A DNA stretch of 32,000 nucleotides from Microcystis aeruginosa NIES-2549 (GCF_000981785.2 NZ_CP011304.1:900001-932000); one strand, 5' to 3'; positions 13,979 to 30,909 are shown, counted from the stretch's first letter. Notes: a model not told the origin generated them from the sequence alone. Numbers and translations: made by a program.

Positions 13979-14758
13979 ATGGGCAAGAGCGTCAAAGCCA
14001 AAAAAACAACCCTCCTACAACAACTGATTAACCAGAGTTTTCTCTTTCGCGGACTAGAGGAAGCTTGGTTAAGTCAGTATCTCGATGCCGACAATCTCAA
14101 GCTAGAGACGCTATTTTCCAATCGTCCCGTCTATACGGCTTTTCTCCCCGATGAATTTCTAGATGTTTTGTATGTGATTTTGAATGAGGGTGTAATCGTC
14201 GTCCGCAGCACTCCCCTCGACCGGATTATTGCCATTACCTACCCCGGCGGCTGTTTTGGCATGAGGAGTTTACCCTTTAGTTATGGTTTAGCCAGTCGCG
14301 CCTTTCCCTGTTTGGTGGAATCCTATAAAACCACCCACGTCCTGAAAATTCCCTTATCGGCGCTAGAAAAGATTTACAACGATAACGAAAGTTTTCGTCA
14401 ACGGTACTGTTTTTTATTTGAATTACAGCAAAAATTCGAGTATCATTTGCTTAATTGCAGTAGCTATCCACCCCAAGCTGTAGCCACTTTACTCAGAGCT
14501 TTAATCTATCAAGAAAGAGAATTAGGCAGTCAACCGAGTGCTGAAAATATCTATACTTTTGATCTATCCGTAGATGTGATTGCTCGCGCTTGTCAACTCA
14601 ATCAACGCACCGTCGAACAGGTATTAAAAGGATTGCAAAACGTGGGATTAATTGCCTCAGAATCGACGGGGGATTTAATTCGGGTACTGGATGCCGAGGG
14701 TTTAAAAGAAGTGTACAGTGCCACCAGGGATAAAGTTAATTGGTGGCCCCTCAGATAA
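13979..14758 (+). CDS. cysR: Crp/Fnr-family transcriptional regulator, CysR-like by position
   Basis: N-terminal cNMP-binding-like beta-roll start (FLFRGLEEAWL) and C-terminal HTH (IARACQLNQRTVEQVLKGLQNVGLI). Divergent from sbpA, like cysR of the Synechococcus sulfate cluster. The symbol rests on synteny. Confidence 0.65.
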   Translation: MGKSVKAKKTTLLQQLINQSFLFRGLEEAWLSQYLDADNLKLETLFSNRPVYTAFLPDEFLDVLYVILNEGVIVVRSTPLDRIIAITYPGGCFGMRSLPFSYGLASRAFPCLVESYKTTHVLKIPLSALEKIYNDNESFRQRYCFLFELQQKFEYHLLNCSSYPPQAVATLLRALIYQERELGSQPSAENIYTFDLSVDVIARACQLNQRTVEQVLKGLQNVGLIASESTGDLIRVLDAEGLKEVYSATRDKVNWWPLR

Positions 14759-15513: not shown

Positions 15514-16068
15514 ATGAGACGAACGATCCTTTTTTTACTGTTTTTTCCGGCTAGTTTAGGCATAATCTCCCAAGTATTCTCACCGGAAAACCTATCCGCT
15601 GCTATTCTTGCCCTAGGTACCCTGGTGATGTGTATGGAACAGGCACGCATGGCAGCGGTGGACTTGGCAGAAATTGCCCAATTTCAGCAAAAAACCAGCG
15701 ATCCTCGCCTCGATCGCTTTTTTATAGTTACAATTAGTACAATTGTTTTAGAATTAGCGGGCTTTTATCTGGCTGCCCTCTGGATAGGATGGGGAGCTTT
15801 AATAGTTTTAGTTAGTCAAATTTGGTTTCATTGTTTAGCCAAAATTCAACTGCAGCCAAGCACGGGAAAAATTATTGACCATGGCATAGGGCCACGTTTA
15901 CCCATCTTACTCGCTGACGGAATCGGCATAATCTTCGTGGCTTTCTGGTTAGCCAAAATTGCCACCCTAATTATGGCCATGACTTTAACGACAATGTTAT
16001 TAATCTACGGCTCTATTAAGTATAGACCTCTTGTCAAAATCAAAAATCTTCCCTTGGTTGAGGAGTAG
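15514..16068 (+). CDS. Integral membrane protein, unknown function
   Basis: 184 aa with 4-5 hydrophobic segments. The start is uncertain (internal Met codons MCMEQARM). Confidence 0.5.
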   Translation: MRRTILFLLFFPASLGIISQVFSPENLSAAILALGTLVMCMEQARMAAVDLAEIAQFQQKTSDPRLDRFFIVTISTIVLELAGFYLAALWIGWGALIVLVSQIWFHCLAKIQLQPSTGKIIDHGIGPRLPILLADGIGIIFVAFWLAKIATLIMAMTLTTMLLIYGSIKYRPLVKIKNLPLVEE

Positions 16069-16245
16069 GTAGCCAGTATTCGGTCGTCAGGAGAATCAAA
16101 AATGAGCTTTAATCAATTAAATTCTCTATTTAGAGATTTTATGCCTATTTTTCTCATTTTTGAACTCTCAAAAATTAATTATCGTTGAGCTTGCCGCTAG
16201 AGGATTTGAGCGCATTTTTCTCTCAGACATCAGCCCTCCTTTGCT

Positions 16246-16268
16246 AAAATGATAATCATTATCATTTT
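16246..16268. promoter_or_regulatory. Fur-family (Zur-type) operator, perfect 11-1-11 palindrome
   Basis: AAAATGATAATCATTATCATTTT. The core TGATAATCATTATCA (16250-16264) equals the 7-1-7 Fur-family consensus. It ends 8 nt before the thrS ATG and overlaps TAAAAT (16245-16250). Confidence 0.7.
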
Positions 16269-16276
16269 AACTGGCA

Positions 16277-18133
16277 ATGGTCAATCAAATTAAGTCCCCC
16301 CTGGCAGAAAGCCCCGTTATCCAAGAAGATTCGCAAAAAATAGTAAAAATACGCCATACTTGCGCCCATATCTTAGCGATGGCCGTACAAACTCTCTTTC
16401 CTGAAACCAAAGTCGCTATTGGTCCCTGGACAGAAACGGGATTCTACTACGATTTTGATCGCCCAACACCCTTTACCCCCGAAGATTTGGAGAAAATAGC
16501 GGCAGAAATGGGGCGAATTATCGGGCAAAACCTGCCAATTATCCGAGAAGTGCTGGAAAGAAGCGAAATTACCGCAGAAATCGAGCGCCTTAATCAACCC
16601 TACAAAAAGTTAATTTTAGAGAGAATTCCCCCAGATGAAACCATTACCCGTTATTTTATCGGTAGTCCGGACGCAGGACGGAGCGATCGAGAACCCTCGT
16701 TAATTGATGGTGCTGTTTCTCCCCCAGAAGAATTTTGGTGGGATCTGTGCGCGGGACCCCATCTCAACTCGACGGGGGAAATTAACCCAGATGCTTTCGT
16801 CTTGGAGAGTGTAGCGGGTGCTTATTGGCAAGGAGATGAAAAACAGCCGCAATTACAGCGAATTTACGGCACAGCTTGGCAAACCCCCGCAGAATTACAA
16901 AATTATCTCCAACAAAAAGAAGAAGCGCAGCGACGAGATCATCGCAAATTGGGACAACAATTAAAATTATTTAGCATCCAAGAAGATGCCGGTGGCGGCT
17001 TAGTTTTTTGGCATCCCCGGGGTGCAACAATGCGTTATTTAATCGAAGATTATTGGCGCCAAGCTCATTTAGAAGCGGGTTATCAATTTCTTTATACTCC
17101 CCATCTAGCTAATTTAGATCTGTGGAAAACTTCTGGACATTGGGACTTTTATCGCGACAATATGTTTGAGGCGATCGAGTTAGAACAGCAAAGCTATCAA
17201 ATTAAGCCGATGAATTGTCCTTTTCATGTTTTAACCTATCAAAATGACCTGCATTCCTATCGAGAATTTCCCCTCAGATGGGCAGAATTAGGCACAGTTT
17301 ATCGTTACGAGCGATCGGGGGTTTTACACGGATTAATGCGGGTGCGAGGTTTTACTCAAGATGATGCTCATATTTTTTGTTTGCCAGAACAAATTGCCGC
17401 AGAGATTCTAGGAGTTTTGAATTTAACCGAGAAAATTCTCTCCGATTTTGGCTTTACTAATTATCAGATAAATTTATCGACTCGTCCCAGTAAATCAGTG
17501 GGTAGTGATAGTGTTTGGGAATTGGCAACGGCGGCTCTAATTGAGGCCTTAAATGCTAAAAAGTGGGATTATATTGAGGATCAGGGAGGTGGGGCTTTTT
17601 ATGGTCCGAAAATTGATATAAAAATTCAAGATGCGATCGGTAGAATGTGGCAATGTTCCACGATTCAGGTCGATTTTAACTTGCCAGAACGCTTTGATAT
17701 GCAATATGTCGCTAGGGATGGTAGTCGCGAAAGACCGATTATGATTCATCGAGCTATTTTTGGCTCTTTGGAAAGATTTTTTGGTATTTTAATCGAGAAT
17801 TATGCGGGAGATTTTCCTCTCTGGTTAGCACCTATTCAAGTCCGTTTATTACCCGTTAGTGATGAACAGCAGCATTATGCTTTAGGGGTGGCAATGCAGT
17901 TAAAACAAGCTGGTTATCGAGTGGAAATCGATAAAAGTGGTGAGCGTTTAGGTAAACAAATTCGTACAGGAGAACTAGAAAAAATACCTGTCTTAGCTGT
18001 GATTGGAAAACGAGAAGTTAGCAGTAAAACTCTAAGTGTTCGCACTCGACAAGGGGGTGATTTAGGTTCGATGACGCTGGCAGATTTATTAGAAAAAATG
18101 CAAACAGCGATCCTATCTAAAACTAATCTCTGA
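16277..18133 (+). CDS. thrS: Threonyl-tRNA synthetase (no N-terminal TGS domain)
   Basis: Editing-domain HxxxH (HTCAH, aa 27-31) and DLCAGPH. Class II catalytic core with zinc ligands in MNCPFH, QDDAHIF, IMIHRA. C-terminal anticodon-binding domain. Confidence 0.96.
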   Translation: MVNQIKSPLAESPVIQEDSQKIVKIRHTCAHILAMAVQTLFPETKVAIGPWTETGFYYDFDRPTPFTPEDLEKIAAEMGRIIGQNLPIIREVLERSEITAEIERLNQPYKKLILERIPPDETITRYFIGSPDAGRSDREPSLIDGAVSPPEEFWWDLCAGPHLNSTGEINPDAFVLESVAGAYWQGDEKQPQLQRIYGTAWQTPAELQNYLQQKEEAQRRDHRKLGQQLKLFSIQEDAGGGLVFWHPRGATMRYLIEDYWRQAHLEAGYQFLYTPHLANLDLWKTSGHWDFYRDNMFEAIELEQQSYQIKPMNCPFHVLTYQNDLHSYREFPLRWAELGTVYRYERSGVLHGLMRVRGFTQDDAHIFCLPEQIAAEILGVLNLTEKILSDFGFTNYQINLSTRPSKSVGSDSVWELATAALIEALNAKKWDYIEDQGGGAFYGPKIDIKIQDAIGRMWQCSTIQVDFNLPERFDMQYVARDGSRERPIMIHRAIFGSLERFFGILIENYAGDFPLWLAPIQVRLLPVSDEQQHYALGVAMQLKQAGYRVEIDKSGERLGKQIRTGELEKIPVLAVIGKREVSSKTLSVRTRQGGDLGSMTLADLLEKMQTAILSKTNL

Positions 18134-18246
18134 AGCTTTTGTATCAACCGGCAAATAGTGGATATCGATCCCTTCCAGGAGAATTTAACAGGGTTGAAAA
18201 AGCCTATTTTCTGTCAATTAATTAACTTAAAAGTGGGTTAGCTGCC

Positions 18247-19278
18247 ATGAGTTCTTTGATAATTCCTCTCTCCGATTCCCTCCCTTGCTTGCCTAAATCG
18301 GGAATGCCTGTGACGATTATTACTGGTTTTTTAGGCAGTGGAAAAACCACTTTACTAAATCATATTCTTGACAATAAAGAAGGTTTAAAAGTTGCCGTTT
18401 TAGTCAATGAGTTTGGGGATATTAATATTGATTCTCAATTGCTTGTTTCCATCGATGAAGATATGGTAGAATTGAGTAATGGCTGTATTTGTTGTACAAT
18501 TAATGATAGTTTAATTGAGACAGTCTATCAGGTCTTAGAAAAAGAAATACCCGTGGACTATCTAATCATTGAAACCACAGGATTAGCCGATCCTTTGCCA
18601 ATTATCCTCACTTTCTTAGCCACGGAATTAAAATATCTGACTCGCTTAGATTCTATTATTACCCTCGTGGATTCTGAAACCTTTACTGCTGATCATTTTG
18701 ATAGTAATATTGCCCTTAGTCAAATTCGTTATGGTGACGTGGTAATTCTCAATAAAATAGATCGAGTAAGTGGCAAAAAATTAGATGATTTAGAAAAGTT
18801 TATTCGTCGGGAAAAAGAGGGTATAAGACTCCTAAAAAGTAGTTATGGTCAGGTTCCTTTGGGTTTATTGTTAGATCTAGGTTTAACTAAAGAAGAATTG
18901 TATAAAGTCCAGTTGAGAGACTTTCAAAAAAATCGCCCAATCTCCAGTGATAATCAATCTCCTGAAGACTTTAATTTTGTCTCCTTTGTTAGCGATAAAC
19001 CATTTAATCTAGATAAATTTGAACCTTTTCTCACGGAAAAAATGCCGATAAATGTTTTTCGAGCAAAAGGGATTCTCTGGTTTCAACAAAGCGATTTAAA
19101 ACATATTTTTCAATTGAGCGGTCTTCGTTACGATCTGCAAGCGGTAGAATGGGATACATCTCCTAATAATCAGTTAGTTTTTATCGGCAGAAATTTAAAT
19201 AAAGAGGAAATCTTGACACAACTAAACGAATGCTTGGCTAGTTCTCAAAAAATTAAAAAGGACAAACTAAGTAGGTAG
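18247..19278 (+). CDS. COG0523-family G3E GTPase metallochaperone (CobW/ZigA/YeiR-like)
   Basis: Walker A GFLGSGKTT (aa 27-35), metal motif CICC (C80-x-C82-C83), ETTGLADP, NKID and a CobW_C-like C-terminal domain. The last 3 codons plus the stop lie inside a MITE end. Confidence 0.9.
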   Translation: MSSLIIPLSDSLPCLPKSGMPVTIITGFLGSGKTTLLNHILDNKEGLKVAVLVNEFGDINIDSQLLVSIDEDMVELSNGCICCTINDSLIETVYQVLEKEIPVDYLIIETTGLADPLPIILTFLATELKYLTRLDSIITLVDSETFTADHFDSNIALSQIRYGDVVILNKIDRVSGKKLDDLEKFIRREKEGIRLLKSSYGQVPLGLLLDLGLTKEELYKVQLRDFQKNRPISSDNQSPEDFNFVSFVSDKPFNLDKFEPFLTEKMPINVFRAKGILWFQQSDLKHIFQLSGLRYDLQAVEWDTSPNNQLVFIGRNLNKEEILTQLNECLASSQKIKKDKLSR

Positions 19279-19371
19279 GTGTTAAAAGTTTTCAGACACC
19301 CCCCTTATCAAGGGGGGCAGGGGGGATCGAACCTAAAATCCATTTTTAATTTAATTATAACCAGCTACTTA
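19268..19371. mobile_element. MITE copy 1 (~100 bp; imperfect terminal inverted repeats, TA flanks)
   Basis: TA-AGTAGGTAGG...CACCCCCCTTATCAAGGGGGG hairpin...CCAGCTACT-TA. The same element occurs at 22148 and 27509. Confidence 0.85.
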
Positions 19372-19651
19372 TGAATAATTTATGGATAAAAACTTTAAAA
19401 TTTAACGAACCCTCGATCCAATGGTTTTACGTCTCTTTGTTCTCCAAGCTCATTATCGCAAACCCTTGCACTTTACGGAAGCGGCGATCACAATTAAAAA
19501 TGATGGGAATTATCTTAGTTGATTTACCCGATGGACAAAGCCAATGGTATCCTAGAGAAAAGAGCCATAACCATGATTAATACCGCAAGAAACCGCCAAT
19601 TTTTCCCAAAATAACCTTGCTAAGTCTAGAGGATTGGTTAAGGAAGATTAC

Positions 19652-19688
19652 TTGCCCCAATCTAACTTATGCTAGAATGATTATCATT
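19652..19688 (+). promoter_or_regulatory. Putative promoter with overlapping Fur/Zur-like 6-1-6 palindrome
   Basis: TTGCCC (19652-19657), 15-nt spacer, extended -10 TGCTAGAAT (19670-19678). The palindrome AATGATTATCATT (19676-19688) matches 12/13 nt of 16248-16260. A strong AAGGAG RBS at 19701-19706 lies 4 nt before ATG 19711. Confidence 0.5.
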
Positions 19689-19710
19689 ACCACAATAAAG
19701 AAGGAGCAAA

Positions 19711-20490
19711 ATGATTATCGTGGTGACGGGGGGTATAGCTGCGGGAAAAACCCATTGGATTCGCCAACAAATCGCCCAAAGCAAGCAGCCAAGTCTATAT
19801 TTTAGTCCCCAGACGGAAACTTTTCCCATTGATCATCTCACTTTACAGAGTGACTTTCCCCAGTTGTCCTCTATTTCTAGGGAAGAAGAAGACCTTTTGA
19901 GCAGTTTATCCATGGAAAACACGGTTTATATGGAAGTACCATGGCATTTAGACGCGCAATCCCTCGAAAGCTTTCTAAAACCCCTCAATTGTCATCGGGT
20001 AGCGATTACGTCTCCAGACGAAGAAATCCCCGAAGGACAAGTTCCCGTCGATGAAATGGTCATCAGTCCCGTCAAAACAACCATAAAAGGTGATCAATGG
20101 TTAAAAAAACGAGAAATACAGATTTATAGAGCCGTTTTAACGGGAGAAATCCTCGATTTTTCCAGTTTAACCACCTTTTGGACAGAATTAACCCAAGGGG
20201 CCTATGGGGAAGTGCTGCGGGTTAAAAGTATCTTCGATATCATCGACGGTCAGTGTATTTATGGGGAATTTATGGATGAATGGCCAGAAAAAGACTTTCA
20301 AAGCTTAAATTTCCCCTTAAATGTCGATGGGAGACCGAATCGCTTCAGTGGGATTGAAATCGTCGGTCGCAATCTCGATAAACCGACAATTGCCGATACC
20401 CTGAGTGATTGTTGTCTGTCCGATGAGGCACTTTTTTATTATCAACAACAATTTCAAGAATCTTTAGAGCCAGAAATGGAGTTAATCTGA
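19711..20490 (+). CDS. P-loop protein with CobW_C-like C-terminal domain (stripped-down COG0523 paralogue)
   Basis: Walker A VTGGIAAGKT (aa 6-14), but no CxCC motif and no NKxD. The C-terminal half parallels the upstream COG0523 protein (LRVKSIFDIIDGQ vs FRAKGILWFQQSD; IEIVGRNLDKPTIADTLSDCCL vs LVFIGRNLNKEEILTQLNECL). Its stop overlaps the next ATG (TGATG). Confidence 0.75.
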   Translation: MIIVVTGGIAAGKTHWIRQQIAQSKQPSLYFSPQTETFPIDHLTLQSDFPQLSSISREEEDLLSSLSMENTVYMEVPWHLDAQSLESFLKPLNCHRVAITSPDEEIPEGQVPVDEMVISPVKTTIKGDQWLKKREIQIYRAVLTGEILDFSSLTTFWTELTQGAYGEVLRVKSIFDIIDGQCIYGEFMDEWPEKDFQSLNFPLNVDGRPNRFSGIEIVGRNLDKPTIADTLSDCCLSDEALFYYQQQFQESLEPEMELI

Positions 20491-21299
20491 TGAAAATAGC
20501 CGTTTTATCCTGTATTCATGGCAATATGCCCGCTTTAAATGCTGTTTTGCAAGATTTAGACCAACAGGGTTGTCAAGAAATCTACTGTTTAGGGGATTTG
20601 GTTGGGTATGGACCCCATCCTAACCAAGTGGTGGAAAAAATCCGTCAACTGGGGATTACTACAGTACAAGGGTGTTGGGATGAGGATATCGTTGAGGGAT
20701 TAAATGCCTGTGAGTGCAGTTATCCGTCGCTTTTAGCAGAAAAACGCGGTAGATTAGCTCATGAGTGGACAAATCAAATAATCACCCCAGAAAACCGTAA
20801 TTATTTGTCAAAACTGCCCGAAATTTTTAAGCTAGATCACCTCTGTTTTGTTCATGGTAGTCCCCAAAATAACCATGAGTATCTTTTAGCCGAAATGGAC
20901 GCTTTTACGGCTTTAGAACGGGTTTTATCGGTAGATACAGAGGTTTTATTCTGTGGACATACCCACATCCCCTACATTCGCACTCTCGACGAGGGAAGCT
21001 TGCAAATAAAAGTGTATCAACCCGATGGGGAACAGTCGCGGCAATTTACCACACCAGTTAAACGTATCATCAACGTGGGATCGGTGGGAGAACCACGTCA
21101 CGGTCGTCCAAATGCCACCTATGTGATTTACGATCGAGAAACGGCAGCGGTACAACTGCGAGAAGTGGCCTATAACTATCAGGAAACCTGTCAGGCTATT
21201 TTAGAATCGGGTTTACCTCCTATTTTCGCTTGGCGATTGGCTAAGGGTCTAGAATATGCGGAAAAAGCCGATGATCCGACTCATGTTTGCGAACGTTAA
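20490..21299 (+). CDS. Metallophosphoesterase (YfcE/MJ0936-like) with Cys substitutions at two metal-ligand positions
   Basis: The calcineurin-like motifs are recognisable. Motif I is SCIHGN instead of SDIHGN (Cys8). Motif II is LGD (D36). Motif III is GCWDE instead of GN(Y/C)D (Cys62). Motif IV is VHGSP (H122), motif V is GHTH (157-159), then GSVGEP. Confidence 0.85.
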   Translation: MKIAVLSCIHGNMPALNAVLQDLDQQGCQEIYCLGDLVGYGPHPNQVVEKIRQLGITTVQGCWDEDIVEGLNACECSYPSLLAEKRGRLAHEWTNQIITPENRNYLSKLPEIFKLDHLCFVHGSPQNNHEYLLAEMDAFTALERVLSVDTEVLFCGHTHIPYIRTLDEGSLQIKVYQPDGEQSRQFTTPVKRIINVGSVGEPRHGRPNATYVIYDRETAAVQLREVAYNYQETCQAILESGLPPIFAWRLAKGLEYAEKADDPTHVCER

Positions 21300-21302
21300 T
21301 TT

Positions 21303-22019
21303 GTGATAAATCAAGAAATTATGTGGGCAATTTTAAGCGGTATTCAAGGCAATTTACCAGCCTATCAAGCGGTCTTGGAAGATATTCAGCAACGGTCAGT
21401 TACTGTAGAAAATTTATATATTTTAGGAGATTTTATCGGTGTTAATCCCGATAGTGAAATGCTAGTAGAACAAATACGTTATCCCACTAAAAATAACTTA
21501 TATCCGCAGGTTTGTCGGGGATGGTGGGAAGAACAATGTCTAATTTTACACAGTTTAGGAGCCACAGGAGAACCGACGGAATTAATCCATAAATATGGAA
21601 TTGATAGCACTAAACAACTCTGGGACGCAGTTTCTTTAGAAACGGTGCAATGGTTACGAAATCTCGATTTTGGTTTTGTCGAGTTGGATTGTTTATTAAT
21701 TCATGGCAGTAGTGTCAGTGTTAGTGAAGAATTAACCCCCGATACTCCCCCATGGCAAATTTTAGATCGACTGCAACGGGTGGGAGTTAATAATCTATTT
21801 TGTGGTCGTGCAGGACAAGTTTTTGATTATTCTTTACAGTCCGCTAATTTAACCAGCACTGTTACTACTTTAGATAAACGGCAACCAAGTCAAACTTTGA
21901 CGATTCAAGATAAGCGTTTAATTGGGGTTGGTAGCGTTGGTAAAGAATTAAATAAAGCAGTTTACACTCTCTATAATCCTAGTAATAATTGCGTGGAGTT
22001 TAGAACCGTACCTTATTAA
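21303..22019 (+). CDS. Degenerate metallophosphoesterase paralogue (predicted pseudoenzyme)
   Basis: Same fold signposts as the preceding gene, but motif I is SGIQGN (D and H lost), motif III is RGWWEE and motif V is GRAG (both His lost). Only LGD and IHGSS are retained. Start is GTG 21303 or ATG 21321 (MWAILSGIQGN aligns with MKIAVLSCIHGN). Confidence 0.75.
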   Translation: MINQEIMWAILSGIQGNLPAYQAVLEDIQQRSVTVENLYILGDFIGVNPDSEMLVEQIRYPTKNNLYPQVCRGWWEEQCLILHSLGATGEPTELIHKYGIDSTKQLWDAVSLETVQWLRNLDFGFVELDCLLIHGSSVSVSEELTPDTPPWQILDRLQRVGVNNLFCGRAGQVFDYSLQSANLTSTVTTLDKRQPSQTLTIQDKRLIGVGSVGKELNKAVYTLYNPSNNCVEFRTVPY

Positions 22020-22147
22020 TCTTTCAGAGATTAATTAAATATTCAAGATTAATTTACAGCCTTTATCGTAAAAGTGAAGTACAAAATAACCTTTGCTAAC
22101 TAGGTATTTTAGATGCGATAACGTACCTCATCTATCTAAGAAAAGCT

Positions 22148-22261
22148 GTAAGTAGGTAGGCGTTAAAAATTATCAGACACCCCCCTTATCAAGGGGGGAC
22201 TAAGGGGGGATTAAGGGGGGATCAAGGGGGGATTTATCTTCAACTTAATTATAACCAGCTA
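22148..22261. mobile_element. MITE copy 2 (right end diverged; internal G-rich 10-mer expansion)
   Basis: TA-AGTAGGTAGGCGTTAAAAATTATCAGACACCCCCCTTATCAAGGGGGG, followed by (AAGGGGGGAT-like) x3-4, then ...TTAATTATAACCAGCTA. The final CTA is the complement of the methyltransferase TAG stop. Confidence 0.8.
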
Positions 22262-23242
22262 GATAACTGAGGTAAGAGACTCTTGCTGACTTGCTTGCAG
22301 ATGGGATTTAGCGCGAACAGCGCGGAACATCCCAAAACGACATAAACCCGTACCAAAGGCCAAACGCATCAGCAGAATTGTCGGCACTTCTCGGACGGAT
22401 TTAACCAACCCAGTTAGACCAAATTGCCACCAACCTTGGGGACGAATCACCCCCTGCCAAATGGTATCAATCCAAGAGGGTAGAGTGGCTTTTGTCCAGT
22501 CAGCAGTCACCACTTCCCCATCTACCAATCCCGTGGCCGCTAACTGTTCGGCAAAACCTTCGATACTGGCAAAAGCGGGGTGGGACCACTGATCCAAAAG
22601 TTGGCGCATTACAGGACTTTCCCAGAAATTGAGCGGTTTTTGACGGTCATCTCGCTGATTCCAGTCCGCTACCACTAGGACTCCCCCCGGCTTAAGAACT
22701 CGCAGTAATTCCTGAGCAAAAACGGCTTTGTCCGGCATATGGGGACCGGCTTCAATTGACCAGACCACATCAAAACTCTCGTCGGGAAAAGAAAGGGCCA
22801 TGGCATCATCGACCAAAAAGCGAGCATTTACATCTGGGGGTGTTAGTTCTTTGGCCCGTGCCACTTGTTTGGGACTAATGGTGACACCGGTAACGGCAAA
22901 TCCGTAGTCGCGGGCCAGAATGCGACTGCTGCCACCAATACCACAACCGACATCGAGGAGAGTTGCACCGGCGGGTAGTTTATCCAAACCTCCCCAAGAG
23001 ACCATTTCCGCCACAAAGTCGGCTTTTGCCTGTAGAAAGTCTTTTTTTTCTGGTGGGGAACCGTAGTGACCTAAATGGATGTGTTCGCCCCAATAATATT
23101 CTAAAATCCCGTCCTCGGTCCATTGGTCGTAGGAATTGGCCACCGAGTCCGACGATTGGTACTTGCGAGAGGAAACAAAATAGACGACGATAGCGATCGC
23201 TAGGAGTAAACCTAAAGATGATGTCACCAAAAGTATATTCAT
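22259..23242 (-). CDS. SAM-dependent methyltransferase, MPBQ/MSBQ (tocopherol/plastoquinone pathway, Synechocystis sll0418-like)
   Basis: N-terminal TM segment, then YQSSDSVANSYDQWTEDGILEYYWGEHIHLGHYG, SAM motif LLDVGCGIGGSS and VLKPGGVLVVADW. ATG 23242 (MNILL) is preferred over the TTG at 23269. The specific substrate call is from remembered similarity. Confidence 0.8.
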   Translation of the reverse strand: MNILLVTSSLGLLLAIAIVVYFVSSRKYQSSDSVANSYDQWTEDGILEYYWGEHIHLGHYGSPPEKKDFLQAKADFVAEMVSWGGLDKLPAGATLLDVGCGIGGSSRILARDYGFAVTGVTISPKQVARAKELTPPDVNARFLVDDAMALSFPDESFDVVWSIEAGPHMPDKAVFAQELLRVLKPGGVLVVADWNQRDDRQKPLNFWESPVMRQLLDQWSHPAFASIEGFAEQLAATGLVDGEVVTADWTKATLPSWIDTIWQGVIRPQGWWQFGLTGLVKSVREVPTILLMRLAFGTGLCRFGMFRAVRAKSHLQASQQESLTSVI

Positions 23243-27508: not shown

Positions 27509-27650
27509 TAAGTAGGTAGGCGTTAAAAATTATCAGACACCCCCCTTATCAAGGGTAGGGTTGATTCATGAATCAACCCTACCTTATCAGGGGGGGCAGG
27601 GGGTATCGAACCTAAAATCCATTTTTAATTTAATTATAACCAGCTACTTA
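27509..27650. mobile_element. MITE copy 3 carrying a nested palindromic insertion
   Basis: Same termini as copy 1 (TA-AGTAGGTAGG ... CCAGCTACT-TA). The central CCCCCCTTATCAAGGGGGG hairpin is interrupted by a 28-nt palindrome. Confidence 0.85.
27555..27582. repeat. 28-nt perfect palindromic element nested in the MITE
   Basis: GTAGGGTTGATTCATGAATCAACCCTAC is its own reverse complement. It is flanked by duplicated CTTATCA. Confidence 0.85.
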
Positions 27651-28563: not shown

Positions 28564-28610
28564 AGCAAAATGGAGAATAGGGAAGATGGAAGGGAATGGG
28601 GATTTCTGTC

Positions 28611-28645
28611 AGTGAATAGTAATCAGTAATCAGTGAACTGAAAAC
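28611..28645. repeat. Degenerate heptanucleotide repeat array (AGTAATC-like x5)
   Basis: agtgaat agtaatc agtaatc agtgaac tgaaaac. It shares the ...ACTGAAAAC tail with the 7784-7840 array. Confidence 0.7.
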
Positions 28646-28777
28646 CCACATCTGATAACAAAGTCCGAATCTAAAACCTAATTCGTTAAGCTAAAAGCTT
28701 CGATGTGCTTAGTTTCTAACCTTCTTTTTAGGTAGGAGAATTGCCAGATTCTGTCTTTTGCCCCTTGCCTTCAGAAG

Positions 28778-28794
28778 CTGATAACTGATAACTG
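28778..28794. repeat. Heptanucleotide repeat (CTGATAA) x2.4, the reverse complement of the CAGTTAT-type unit
   Basis: ctgataa ctgataa ctg. Confidence 0.7.
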
Positions 28795-28801
28795 CCTTTT
28801 T

Positions 28802-29002
28802 CTAGGATCGAGAATCAGAATCTATATCTGTCTTCACTTCGGGGATAATATCCGGTCTTTGGGCATCTTCCCAACCAACCGGACGTTTAGAATTATACCA
28901 AGCGATCGAACCGATGGTGACAGCAGCCAGAAAACCGACCACATAAACTGCCACGAAATAAACGGGGAATTTGCCACTGGCCACTTCTAGGAGTAGATAC
29001 AT
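28802..29002 (-). CDS. Small single-pass membrane protein
   Basis: 66 aa with one hydrophobic helix (VYFVAVYVVGFLAAVTIGSIAWY) and an acidic tail. Family not recognised. Confidence 0.55.
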   Translation of the reverse strand: MYLLLEVASGKFPVYFVAVYVVGFLAAVTIGSIAWYNSKRPVGWEDAQRPDIIPEVKTDIDSDSRS

Positions 29003-29061
29003 AATTTTTTCACGATTAAGCTTTTAATTTGTATATCTTAACAGAATCGGCCCCCTCATCC

Positions 29062-29469
29062 CTATTCTCGATCGCTACTGGTCCACCAACCGGAAGGCAG
29101 CCAAACACCGCCATGAAAAGCTATTTTTGCCGGTGTCATCACATATCCCCAGGCCTCGCCGATCAATTCTCGCTCTAGATTATAAATAGGGATTCTGCGA
29201 CGCTGATACTCGTTTTCTTCTGGAGATCTGCCGGGTTGATAATCTTCCAAACCATCCAAAAGCTCAATATCATAATCTGCGTTAAAAGTCAATAAAATTC
29301 CCTTCACCCAGCCCTCCCCCTCGGTCAGTCCGGGATAACCGAGGGCGGTAAGATGGTATAAATGCCCCCTTGTGTAGGCGGTTTTAGAGTTGATCACTTT
29401 TCCTGCACAGTAGGCAGAATAGTTACTCTCCCTGGGTTTCAGGGTTCCATAAACAAAAACTTCCATCAT
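29062..29469 (-). CDS. Gamma-glutamylcyclotransferase (AIG2/GGACT-like) family protein
   Basis: N-terminal VFVYGTLK motif and a conserved acidic residue context (LDGLEDY). Its start overlaps the AKR stop by 4 nt, implying co-transcription. Confidence 0.8.
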   Translation of the reverse strand: MMEVFVYGTLKPRESNYSAYCAGKVINSKTAYTRGHLYHLTALGYPGLTEGEGWVKGILLTFNADYDIELLDGLEDYQPGRSPEENEYQRRRIPIYNLERELIGEAWGYVMTPAKIAFHGGVWLPSGWWTSSDRE

Positions 29470-30491
29470 CGATCCAATTGTGCAGCTACTCCTCCTAATA
29501 GGATATCGCGAACAAATTGACTGGCTAAAAGTTCGTGGGGAAAACCGAGGGAAATGGCACTGATATTATCGAGTCTTTGCAGCTGTTCCCCAGTCAGGTT
29601 AAAATCCACACAGGCGAGATTATCCTGCAATTGGGACAATTTTCGAGCGCCAATGATAGGAATTACGGAGTTAGGGCGATTTCTGAGCCAATTTAACGCC
29701 ACTTGTGCCGGTGATTTGCCGATTTCTCTGGCAATCTCTAGGACGGTCTCGGCAATTTTCAGATCGCGATCAAGAATTTGAAAAGGTTGGTCGGTCATGC
29801 TTAAACGACCATCGACGGGGTTGGGTTGATTATATTTTCCCGTTAAAACTCCTCCTCCCAGGGGACTCCAAGCTGTCACCCCGATGTTTAATGCTTTGGC
29901 CATAGGCAATAATTCCCGTTCGGGGGTGCGTTCCTTGAGAGAATATTCTATCTGTAGTCCGATAAAGGGTGTCCATCCCCGTAGGGTGGCTAGGGTGTTC
30001 GCTTGGGAGACAATCCAAGCAGGACTGTCAGAAATGCCGATATAAAGCACTTTTCCCATCCTGACCAAATCATCGAAAGCACGCATCACTTCCTCGATAG
30101 GAGTGAGAGAGTCCCAAATATGAAGCCAGAGTAAATCGATGTAATCAGTGCCTAAACGCTTTAAACTAGCTTCTACCGCCTGAAAGAGGTTTTTTCGATG
30201 ATTTCCGCAGGCATTGACATCGCCGGGGCGGGTGTTGAGAGAATATTTCGTGGCAATTACCCATTTTTCTCGATCGCCCTTGACAAATTCCCCCACTAAT
30301 GTTTCACTGGTTCCGTTAGTGTAGAAATTAGCAGTATCGAGAAAATTGCCCCCCGCTTCCGCAAAAGCCTGAAAAACCGCCCGACTTTCCTCTTTATCCG
30401 ACCCCCAACCCCAATCTTCCCCGAATGTCATCGTTCCTAGACATAGTTCCGAAACTCGCAGACCACTATTACCTAAAAGTTTGTAACGCAT
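29466..30491 (-). CDS. Aldo/keto reductase (Tas/YajO-like)
   Basis: MRYKLLGNSGLRVSELCLGTMTFG, FLDTANFY, ATKY, IDLLWLHIWD and ISDSPAW: AKR catalytic tetrad context. Confidence 0.9.
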   Translation of the reverse strand: MRYKLLGNSGLRVSELCLGTMTFGEDWGWGSDKEESRAVFQAFAEAGGNFLDTANFYTNGTSETLVGEFVKGDREKWVIATKYSLNTRPGDVNACGNHRKNLFQAVEASLKRLGTDYIDLLWLHIWDSLTPIEEVMRAFDDLVRMGKVLYIGISDSPAWIVSQANTLATLRGWTPFIGLQIEYSLKERTPERELLPMAKALNIGVTAWSPLGGGVLTGKYNQPNPVDGRLSMTDQPFQILDRDLKIAETVLEIAREIGKSPAQVALNWLRNRPNSVIPIIGARKLSQLQDNLACVDFNLTGEQLQRLDNISAISLGFPHELLASQFVRDILLGGVAAQLDR

Positions 30492-30682
30492 AATTAACTA
30501 AAATTTTGAATAATGAAGTTAATTATAATTGAATTTGATCGACATTTTTACTACAGCATCCAGTCTTTTTTGTCAAGTACATTTGATACAAGTTTCATAA
30601 GCTAACCCCAGTGAAAGCTATGACCTTAAAGGAGGATAAACCACCTCGGTGGGGGGGTCATTCCCCCGTTAACTGGGCGATT

Positions 30683-30909
30683 CTATTTAGGGTTTGCTGA
30701 ATAAATCTAAAAACCTTGTTGGGTAAGACTTTTAGACTTTTTGTCAATCAAAAAGTACCAGGTATGGGAGTGATCAGGGGGAAAATTCCGGGACTTTTTC
30801 CCTAAAAATTAGGTAATTGGCCACCTCAAAACCGGTAAAATCCCACACCCCACACCCCACACCCCACACCCTGCCCCCACCGAAAAACTTTTTCAGCAGA
30901 CCCTATTTA
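30683..30909. repeat. ~227-bp segment bounded by 19-nt imperfect inverted repeats (MITE-like)
   Basis: CTATTTAGGGTTTGCTGAA (30683-30701) versus TTCAGCAGACCCTATTTAG (30891-30909), 16/19 complementary. The (CCCACAC)x4 array lies inside it. Confidence 0.5.
30841..30868. repeat. Heptanucleotide tandem repeat (CCCACAC) x4
   Basis: cccacac cccacac cccacac cccacac, followed by the degenerate unit cctgccc. Confidence 0.95.

Follow-up and report, generated by a model that had tools for sequence, protein, structure and literature searches.

Bacterial survival under zinc scarcity has been mapped chiefly through the regulons that Zur controls, and it was through their members that FolE2, ZagA/ZNG1 and the T2 form of threonyl-tRNA synthetase (ThrRS) were revealed. 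The described system closest to the one considered here is the all4725–all4721 operon of Anabaena PCC 7120, which contains hemB2, thrS2, the COG0523 gene all4722 and folE2, and in which thrS2, the gene for the zinc-limitation enzyme T2, is co-transcribed with all4722 and is under Zur repression at a promoter lying just upstream of it (Rubio et al., 2015; PMC4787780). We analyzed a 32-kb window (by which we mean the whole stretch of DNA under study) from Microcystis aeruginosa NIES-2549, in which thrS and a COG0523 gene are followed by three genes, here called geneA, geneB and geneC (together the trio, 19711–22019), that encode what appear to be a stripped COG0523-like protein, a metallophosphoesterase (MPP) with Cys at two metal-ligand positions, and a degenerate paralogue of that MPP. 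The Anabaena regulon, as summarized in a 2018 review of Zur regulons in which phosphatases and phosphoesterases go unmentioned (PMC6103462), has neither a phosphoesterase nor a geneA-like protein, whereas in the Microcystis window, as on a plasmid of A. variabilis, the island runs on into the trio.

The reading that we favor, with a probability of roughly 0.55, is that these genes form an island for zinc starvation that Zur represses at two operators, in which geneB would be the core enzyme, geneA its assembly factor and geneC a non-catalytic partner. The five genes are co-directional across 16277–22019, and all elements of the island lie on the + strand (Table 1). Because the genes on either side (encoding an ABC transporter, an RNase III, a methyltransferase and an amidase) are unrelated, the Microcystis island consists of these five genes only. 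An earlier prediction made from the DNA alone (hereafter the original prediction) had listed the same elements, and each of them was recovered in the place and orientation that it gave.

Table 1. Features of the zinc-starvation island and of the repeat copies in the Microcystis aeruginosa NIES-2549 window.
Feature	Position	Strand	Remarks
Zur box 1	16246-16268		AAAATGATAATCATTATCATTTT, perfect 23-nt palindrome (11-1-11) just upstream of thrS
thrS, T2-type (low-zinc) threonyl-tRNA synthetase	16277-18133	+	TIGR00418, 706 bits
Canonical COG0523 G3E GTPase	18247-19278	+	Pfam cobW 7e-54, CobW_C 2e-20, motif GCICC
MITE-like repeat copy 1	19271-19368	+	Hairpin CCCCCCTTATCAAGGGGGG; at COG0523 stop
Predicted trio promoter and operator	19670-19692	+	Zur box 2 overlaps the extended -10 TGcTAGAAT (19670-19678)
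geneA, degenerate COG0523-like P-loop protein, 259 aa	19711-20490	+	
geneB, Cys-type metallophosphoesterase, 269 aa	20490-21299	+	Metallophos_2 1.8e-20, 74 bits vs cut-off 27
geneC, catalytically degenerate geneB paralogue, 238 aa	21303-22019	+	Start may be ATG 21321
MITE-like repeat copy 2	22152-22262	+	Downstream of geneC
MITE-like repeat copy 3	27512-27557+	+	Repeat comparison within window

The first half of the island is an already known arrangement, and here the Anabaena precedent invoked by the original prediction, a second ThrRS under Zur control beside a COG0523 gene, is borne out by the literature (PMC4787780). Directly before WWDLCAGPH, the window ThrRS carries an insertion of ~24 amino acids that is common to the zinc-island thrS genes of other cyanobacteria (72–76% identity) and corresponds to 'insert a' of T2 (PMC4787780), whereas a T1-like ThrRS (52% identity) lacks this insertion and has two other small ones. 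With insert a, none of the T1 insertions, a Zur box and an adjacent COG0523 gene, the window thrS is classed by its sequence and setting as T2. The COG0523 protein next door is a canonical one, as originally described, with C80, C82 and C83 of its CxCC motif invariant; its best NCBIfam model is ZigA, with a score under the model cut-off. The likeness to the Anabaena operon extends to the order of the two genes, to the placing of a Zur operator close before thrS and to a second, internal promoter that in Microcystis is predicted to be Zur-controlled.

To identify Zur sites we used the consensus TGATAATNATTATCA, a 7-1-7 inverted repeat taken from the list of Anabaena Zur-binding sites in the S3 table of PMC10957091. 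Box 1, which ends 8 nt before the thrS ATG, agrees with it at 14/14 positions, and the 15-nt core of this box (TGATAATCATTATCA, 16250–16264) is the sole match without mismatches in the 32-kb window and equals the alr3242 site, the top-scoring entry of that published list; with up to 3 mismatches allowed, the window contains 16 matches, compared with 3.15 expected from shuffles. No Shine-Dalgarno sequence is visible between box 1 and the thrS ATG (window 16244–16277), which, together with the 8-nt spacing, suggests that the thrS mRNA leader is very short or absent. The second promoter-like region with a related palindrome that had been proposed ahead of the trio is indeed there: box 2 (TGATTATCATTACCA, 19678–19692) matches 12/14 consensus positions, sits on a predicted extended −10 element and is followed by the ribosome-binding site GAAGGAG (19700–19706) ahead of geneA. 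The promoter with box 2 is invariant in 8 Microcystis strains, in which the spacer further upstream is mosaic, and a comparison of strains showed no variation in the promoter-proximal 200 nt as a whole. At the orthologous position in other cyanobacteria, boxes matching 12–14 of the 14 positions are fused to TATAAT, typically 27–70 nt before the geneA ATG. A third site in the window, TTATAATTATTTTCA (1363–1377), has 2 mismatches to the Zur consensus.

How often such boxes occur across genomes was counted at a threshold of at least 12/14 consensus positions no more than 150 nt upstream of an open reading frame (ORF). By this measure, geneA has a box in 43 of 71 non-redundant loci and unrelated ORFs have one in 36 of 477, and the frequency for geneA equals that of recognized targets of Zur counted in these loci (HemB, 13/18; ZnuA, 9/13; ThrS, 5/7). 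The geneA copies that have no box mostly lie directly downstream of hemB or folE, and apparently inside longer operons. In seven loci in which geneC is displaced 1.4–3.6 kb from geneB, geneC has a box of its own (ATATAATGATTATCA) at −18 to −42.

Expression data for an orthologous promoter point to the regulator. In Picosynechococcus sp. PCC 7002, G0131, which is an orthologue of geneA cut down to its N-terminal 147 residues, changed 95.8-fold under zinc limitation imposed by N,N,N′,N′-tetrakis(2-pyridylmethyl)ethylenediamine (TPEN), 0.2-fold at 100 µM Zn, 142.8-fold in a zur mutant and 2.5-fold in a fur mutant (Ludwig et al., 2015; PMC4628125). Because this promoter answers zinc limitation and zur deletion, and fur deletion only 2.5-fold, we take the regulator to be Zur and not Fur, and we read the 'perfect Fur-family palindrome' that the original prediction placed before thrS, as a Fur/Zur box, as a Zur site. 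Zur control of the trio is thus well supported, the response to Zur and zinc having been shown in the literature for the orthologous PCC 7002 promoter.

These data also bear on the alternative that the palindromes are Fur operators, or chance palindromes in AT-rich DNA, and that the trio is an unrelated operon which happens to lie next to thrS–COG0523. This view is favored by the fact that other bacteria use TGATAATNATTATCA as their classical 7-1-7 Fur box, and by the finding that a consensus promoter and terminator scan of 16000–22400 gave matches no more numerous than those in shuffles. Set against these points are the identity of the motif with the Anabaena Zur site (PMC10957091), the PCC 7002 promoter just described, the presence of the box in distant lineages, where it keeps its position, and also before znuA, hemB and thrS, and the association of the trio with zinc-island genes across many genera. 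We therefore consider this alternative highly improbable and already largely refuted.

The PCC 7002 locus requires care in another respect, because it is rearranged. On plasmid pAQ7 (G0127–G0132), geneB is deleted, geneC is cut to its C-terminal half (residues 117–246), and a foreign ORF, G0130, lies between the remnants, as seen when 28600–30700 of the PCC 7002 locus (L091) is compared with the locus of the sister strain PCC 7117 (L080), which has an intact A-B-C order behind a perfect Zur box. The authors of the PCC 7002 study reported that the phosphoesterase genes (G0129/G0130) were not induced (PMC4628125). We considered this result as an objection to co-regulation of the trio and rejected it, since, with geneB deleted and geneA and geneC truncated, the missing induction stems from a broken locus and does not argue that the genes are independently regulated. 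The rearrangement also explains why those authors did not recognize the family, and it changes how the sole published expression dataset touching the trio should be read. PCC 7002 and PCC 7117 form a natural comparison pair for a broken and an intact trio. A perfect Zur box in the pAQ7 locus is common to G0131 and a divergent gene for an FAD/NAD(P) oxidoreductase, G0132, which was induced 92-fold and 70-fold. An oxidoreductase gene of this kind (~410 aa, with weak Lys/Orn monooxygenase-like matches) is transcribed away from geneA in 27 loci, with one Zur box serving both genes, for example in L056, L060, L061, L064, L065, L067 and L080; the Microcystis island lacks it.

The trio itself is conserved as a unit, as emerged from a survey of gene neighborhoods of the kind proposed with the original prediction. 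A geneA profile search found relatives in 230 representative genomes, of which 79 genome loci were examined; all are cyanobacterial save one record labelled Candidatus Gracilibacteria, and the window geneA is 99% identical to that of M. ichthyoblabe FBCC-A1114. In essentially every locus with room for both genes, whether among these 79 or among the 39 metagenome loci described next, geneB lies next to geneA; in almost all of the 79 the two are −1 to +35 nt apart, and geneC lies within about 350 nt 3′ of geneB in most of them (about three quarters overall). A separate metagenome scan yielded 39 cyanobacterial-type geneB loci, in which geneA is present in 38 and geneC in 30. In the window, geneA and geneB overlap at TGATG, as had been noted; the 3-nt gap reported between geneB and geneC holds if geneC starts at GTG 21303 and becomes 21 nt if it starts at ATG 21321, which is equally possible because conservation within the geneC family begins only at W8. 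Recurrent neighbors of the trio are COG0523 paralogues, ZnuA/B/C, Asp-rich HemB, FolE, T2-type ThrS and WD40 proteins, and some islands also contain HisI, a metallothionein with SmtB (smtA/smtB) or a FUR-family gene (zur).

Among the individual islands, an extra hisI (PRA-cyclohydrolase) occurs in A. variabilis (L081, 7078–7428) and in a Thermosynechococcaceae metagenome-assembled genome (L084, 10792–11151), DUF1636 genes occur in L081 and L083, and smtA/smtB and a FUR-family gene occur in L084; these hisI copies, DUF1636 genes, smtA/smtB and FUR-family gene are further candidates for Zur-regulon paralogues. On the upstream side of the Microcystis island lie genes for a Crp-like helix-turn-helix protein and for a 184-aa membrane protein that matches no family (window 13979–14758 and 15514–16068), and Crp-family genes are found near the trio in five other non-redundant loci as well (cluster 15).

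The product of geneB aligns end to end with an MPP of solved structure, 3rqz (2e-31), relative to which motif I changes from SDVH to SCIH and motif III from GNHD to GCWD, so that motif I reads CxH in place of DxH and the residues C62, W63 and D64 of motif III are conserved. In an alignment of 121 homologues (about 70% identity), C8, H10, D36, C62, H122 and H157 never vary, H159 is found in 120, and motifs II (GD), IV (His) and V (GHxH) are kept. Because the His and Asp ligands are conserved together with C8 and C62, which are the two Cys substitutions of the original prediction, the whole binuclear ligand set is retained, with one thiolate per metal. Four further Cys residues are invariant in the 121 sequences, namely C74 and C76 (a CxC pair in a 7-residue insertion), C155 and C267; the C-terminal HxC tail (D..H.C.R) is likewise invariant, and residues 255–269 are predicted to be disordered, with a predicted local distance difference test score (pLDDT) below 50. 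The AlphaFold2 (AF2) model as a whole has a pLDDT of 85.3, and its best fold matches are 3rqz, 3qfm (SapH), 1nnw and 2gju, at a template modelling score of about 0.7, with Vps29 among the other fold neighbors.

The geneC product is recognizably a paralogue of geneB (31% identity, E 3e-25) from which, as had been claimed, most catalytic residues are gone: of the MPP motifs, nothing but GD (motif II) and His (motif IV) survives in its family, which reads G/E-Q at motif I, GWWE at motif III and GRSG at motif V, with GWWEEQ and LFCGRSG conserved. It gave no match to Pfam or NCBIfam models. To judge from these residues, geneC is strongly conserved but cannot build a canonical metal site.

For geneA, alignment, profile comparison and structural modelling converge on the P-loop/CobW_C protein lacking CxCC and NKxD that had been predicted. 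Walker A is present, with G12, K13 and T14 invariant in 20 sequences, the Walker B position is held by an invariant acidic residue, E75, and a C-terminal DCC is near-invariant. None of the aligned family members has a Cys in the segment between Walker A and Walker B, where CxCC would lie, and NKxD is absent, the corresponding region reading HRVA (R96 and V97 conserved). The C-terminal half resembles CobW_C, since hhalign matches residues 140–235 to the COG0523 profile with a probability of 91% (E 9e-7), and PF07683 is among the precomputed matches of some family members, while the window geneA itself has no Pfam or NCBIfam match. YjiA provides the only PDB matches with E<0.001 to the AF2 model (pLDDT 82.8; Foldseek, E 8e-7). 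The protein therefore looks like a stripped derivative of COG0523, with no recognizable metal site apart from the DCC.

From this anatomy we propose how the island might work. Operator 1 would cover the start of the T2 thrS and COG0523 genes, operator 2 would overlap the −10 of the second promoter, which would drive geneA, geneB and geneC, and Zur would leave both operators as zinc falls. The functional core would be geneB, probably a nucleotide or diester phosphoesterase of the 3rqz/SapH (COG0639) branch, whose thiolates would hold Zn, or Zn and Fe, at very low buffered zinc and so keep the enzyme metallated; since one ligand per metal is Cys, tighter Zn binding is to be expected, as in Dbr1, the debranching enzyme of RNA lariats. 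Having lost CxCC and the guanine-specificity motif and kept the P-loop and the client-binding CobW_C domain, geneA would most likely be a dedicated factor for geneB that drives its assembly or metal insertion in a nucleotide-dependent way. G3E genes characteristically adjoin their clients, and it is this habit, together with the translational coupling of geneA to geneB, that points to geneB as the client. The most likely role for geneC would be that of a non-catalytic partner subunit. The combination of a chaperone with an active/inactive heterodimer is thus what we infer from three observations: the genes are tightly coupled, geneA is homologous to COG0523/YjiA, and geneC has lost ligands. 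As to the substrate, the kinship with SapH/ApaH and the recurrent adjacency of folE and COG0523 suggest nucleotide polyphosphates, which we offer as speculation.

Cys-type MPPs also exist outside cyanobacteria. In a full-library search, the cyanobacterial Cys-type proteins formed one 50% cluster, beyond which lay four divergent Cys-type clusters, and the next relatives were canonical Asp/Asn (GNYD) proteins that already had the CxC pair. The named sources of the non-cyanobacterial proteins include Sorangium, Polyangiaceae, Pseudobacteriovorax and Kiloniellales; we had considered the marine Cys-type MPP loci as picocyanobacterial and dropped this assignment, as the source names point to other phyla. 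Of 41 non-cyanobacterial Cys-type MPP loci examined, 21 have a gene for a FeoB-like/Gate membrane protein as neighbor (directly adjacent where inspected), 20 a COG0523-like gene, 7 a FUR-family gene and 7 a WD40 gene, and at least one of these four is a neighbor in 27. These counts argue that the Cys-type MPP is a widespread core with lineage-specific nucleoside triphosphatase (NTPase) or transporter partners, repeatedly tied to metal homeostasis. In 10 loci, among the marine metagenome loci L095–L122, a ~190-aa protein that matches no Pfam family ('c5') is encoded 3′ of the MPP, often beside a convergent FUR-family gene (for example L122, 1462–2031).

The FeoB-like association, which points to Fe(II), is one of the observations that would fit a different role for the trio, that of a zinc-independent (Fe/Mn) replacement for a zinc-dependent housekeeping phosphoesterase, in the manner of HemB2, FolE2 and ThrRS-T2, with the Cys residues selecting Fe(II). 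Other island genes are indeed paralogues of this sort (Asp-rich HemB, FolE, HisI and T2 ThrRS), and Dbr1 can use Fe/Zn combinations (PMC9202583). Known zinc-sparing paralogues, however, usually lose Cys ligands and geneB gains them, and the nearest canonical Asp/Asn relatives that we examined come from non-cyanobacterial contexts (ccm genes; pstB–phoU). Since no canonical paralogue was identified in cyanobacteria, the logic of a replacement enzyme is unproven, and we judge this explanation unlikely, if credible.

The same transporter neighbors, at 21 of the 41 loci in other phyla, could instead be accommodated if geneB were primarily not an enzyme but a cytosolic high-affinity acceptor or buffer for zinc or iron that would take up metal from importers or COG0523 proteins and hand it on; the Cys/His site, the CxC loop and the flexible HxC tail would then be transfer sites, and geneA and geneC adaptors. 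The loss of the catalytic His of motif III (GCWD) would suit such a protein, as would the predicted disorder of its invariant tail, a feature of metallochaperone tails. But the remaining ligands, GD and GHTH are invariant at about 70% identity, which is typical of an active enzyme, and canonical Asp/Asn members of the family commonly have Tyr at this residue of motif III (GNYD), so the loss of the His is a trait of the subfamily rather than a sign of inactivation. A role as a buffer seems to us distinctly unlikely.

Several observations weigh against the reading that we prefer, a Zur-repressed island with geneB as core enzyme, geneA as assembly factor and geneC as partner, and concern each of its parts. 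In geneB, Trp takes the place of the His that serves as general acid in motif III (GNHD to GCWD), so that hydrolytic competence is not guaranteed. Because geneA is without every known COG0523 metal ligand, direct delivery of metal by it is questionable. No geneC was found nearby in six of the 79 genome loci (L012, L016, L018, L031, L057 and L072), in each of which the sequence extends more than 7 kb downstream, and geneC must therefore be dispensable in at least some lineages; in the 41 non-cyanobacterial Cys-type MPP loci, neither geneA nor geneC was found. Among the relatives examined, no canonical Asp/Asn housekeeping paralogue was identified in cyanobacteria. On the regulatory side, box 2 of Microcystis reaches only 12/14 consensus positions, and the expression data touching the trio amount to one dataset from the rearranged PCC 7002 locus, which is neither Microcystis nor an intact trio.

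The spacer between COG0523 and geneA contains a repeat that the original prediction called a miniature inverted-repeat transposable element (MITE) exactly at the COG0523 stop. The element is ~100 nt long and consists of GTAGGTAGGYGTTAAAARTTWTCAGACACCCCCCTTATCAAGGGGG, a variable number of GGGGGGATYAA units and an end reading ...TTAATTATAACCAGCTA. Copy 1 rewrites the last COG0523 codons and supplies the COG0523 stop codon, and copies 1 and 2 bracket the trio together with its promoter. Copy 1 aligns with copies 3′ of geneC in other strains, and copy 2 is also found 3′ of geneC in L001, L002, L006 and L010. Depending on the Microcystis strain, the repeat is present in or absent from the COG0523–geneA spacer, and in the window and in strain T1-4 it stands in place of a different spacer segment of L001, L004 and L006. 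A multi-copy, strain-polymorphic repeat thus lies where it was predicted. No terminal inverted repeats or target-site duplications were seen in strain alignments or in a spacer repeat scan, which was not aimed at the element ends, and only an internal GC hairpin was evident; because those two features are not established, we label the element MITE-like rather than a MITE.

Among the papers that we could reach, none treats the trio as a family or assigns it to a Zur regulon, save for the unrecognized remnant G0131, in a check that left the content of RegPrecise outside its scope, and a search of the literature for Zur and cyanobacteria together with (metallo)phosphoesterases returned only the PCC 7002 paper. 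The original statement that the trio belongs to no described regulon is thus nearly right, the exception being that a paper of 2015 described G0131, a hypothetical protein, as Zur-induced and left its family unrecognized. The trio appears to be among the most widely conserved components of cyanobacterial Zur islands without a described function, and, as Microcystis is a bloom-forming genus, its acclimation to trace metals is of ecological relevance. At its most far-reaching, the double-Cys MPP might be a previously unrecognized, phylum-spanning zinc-starvation enzyme with a thiolate binuclear center, a dedicated NTPase partner, a nucleotide signal or intermediate as substrate, and an active/dead heterodimer of geneB and geneC, a picture that we think improbable in full. 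If it were true, the NTPase partner would be geneA in cyanobacteria and a COG0523 or FeoB-like protein elsewhere, and the substrate could be an Ap4A-type dinucleotide or a triphosphate of the FolE pathway, which would link metal status to nucleotide signalling.

Each member of the trio has a counterpart among known systems from which it departs. Like the COG0523 metallochaperones YjiA, ZigA, ZagA and ZNG1, geneA combines a P-loop domain with CobW_C in a Zur-regulated context; unlike them, it lacks CxCC, NKxD and the ETTG glycine and is about 90 residues shorter. The best sequence and fold matches of geneB are to the ApaH-like 3rqz/SapH (Spr1479) branch, COG0639, in which SapH is an Ap4A/ATP hydrolase and phosphodiesterase, but that branch has the canonical Asp and Asn ligands and is without the 7-residue CxC insertion and the HxC tail. 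With Vps29 of the retromer, geneC shares the retention of fold-defining motifs, the absence of most metal ligands and strong conservation, whereas it arose recently as a paralogue and its gene lies next to that of the active relative, and a scaffold role for it is conjectural. The motif I Asp-to-Cys change in the alpha metal pocket of geneB recurs in Dbr1, the only precedent for Cys in motif I that we found, where it has been described as unique to that eukaryotic enzyme and as conferring stable Zn binding (PMC9202583). Unlike Dbr1, geneB is bacterial, belongs to another branch of MPPs and carries a second such substitution, Cys for the motif III Asn, so that the likeness is one of chemistry and not of family. 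What is distinctive, set within the known frame of Zur islands, G3E chaperones and MPP enzymes, is this double-Cys binuclear site, which recurs across several phyla.

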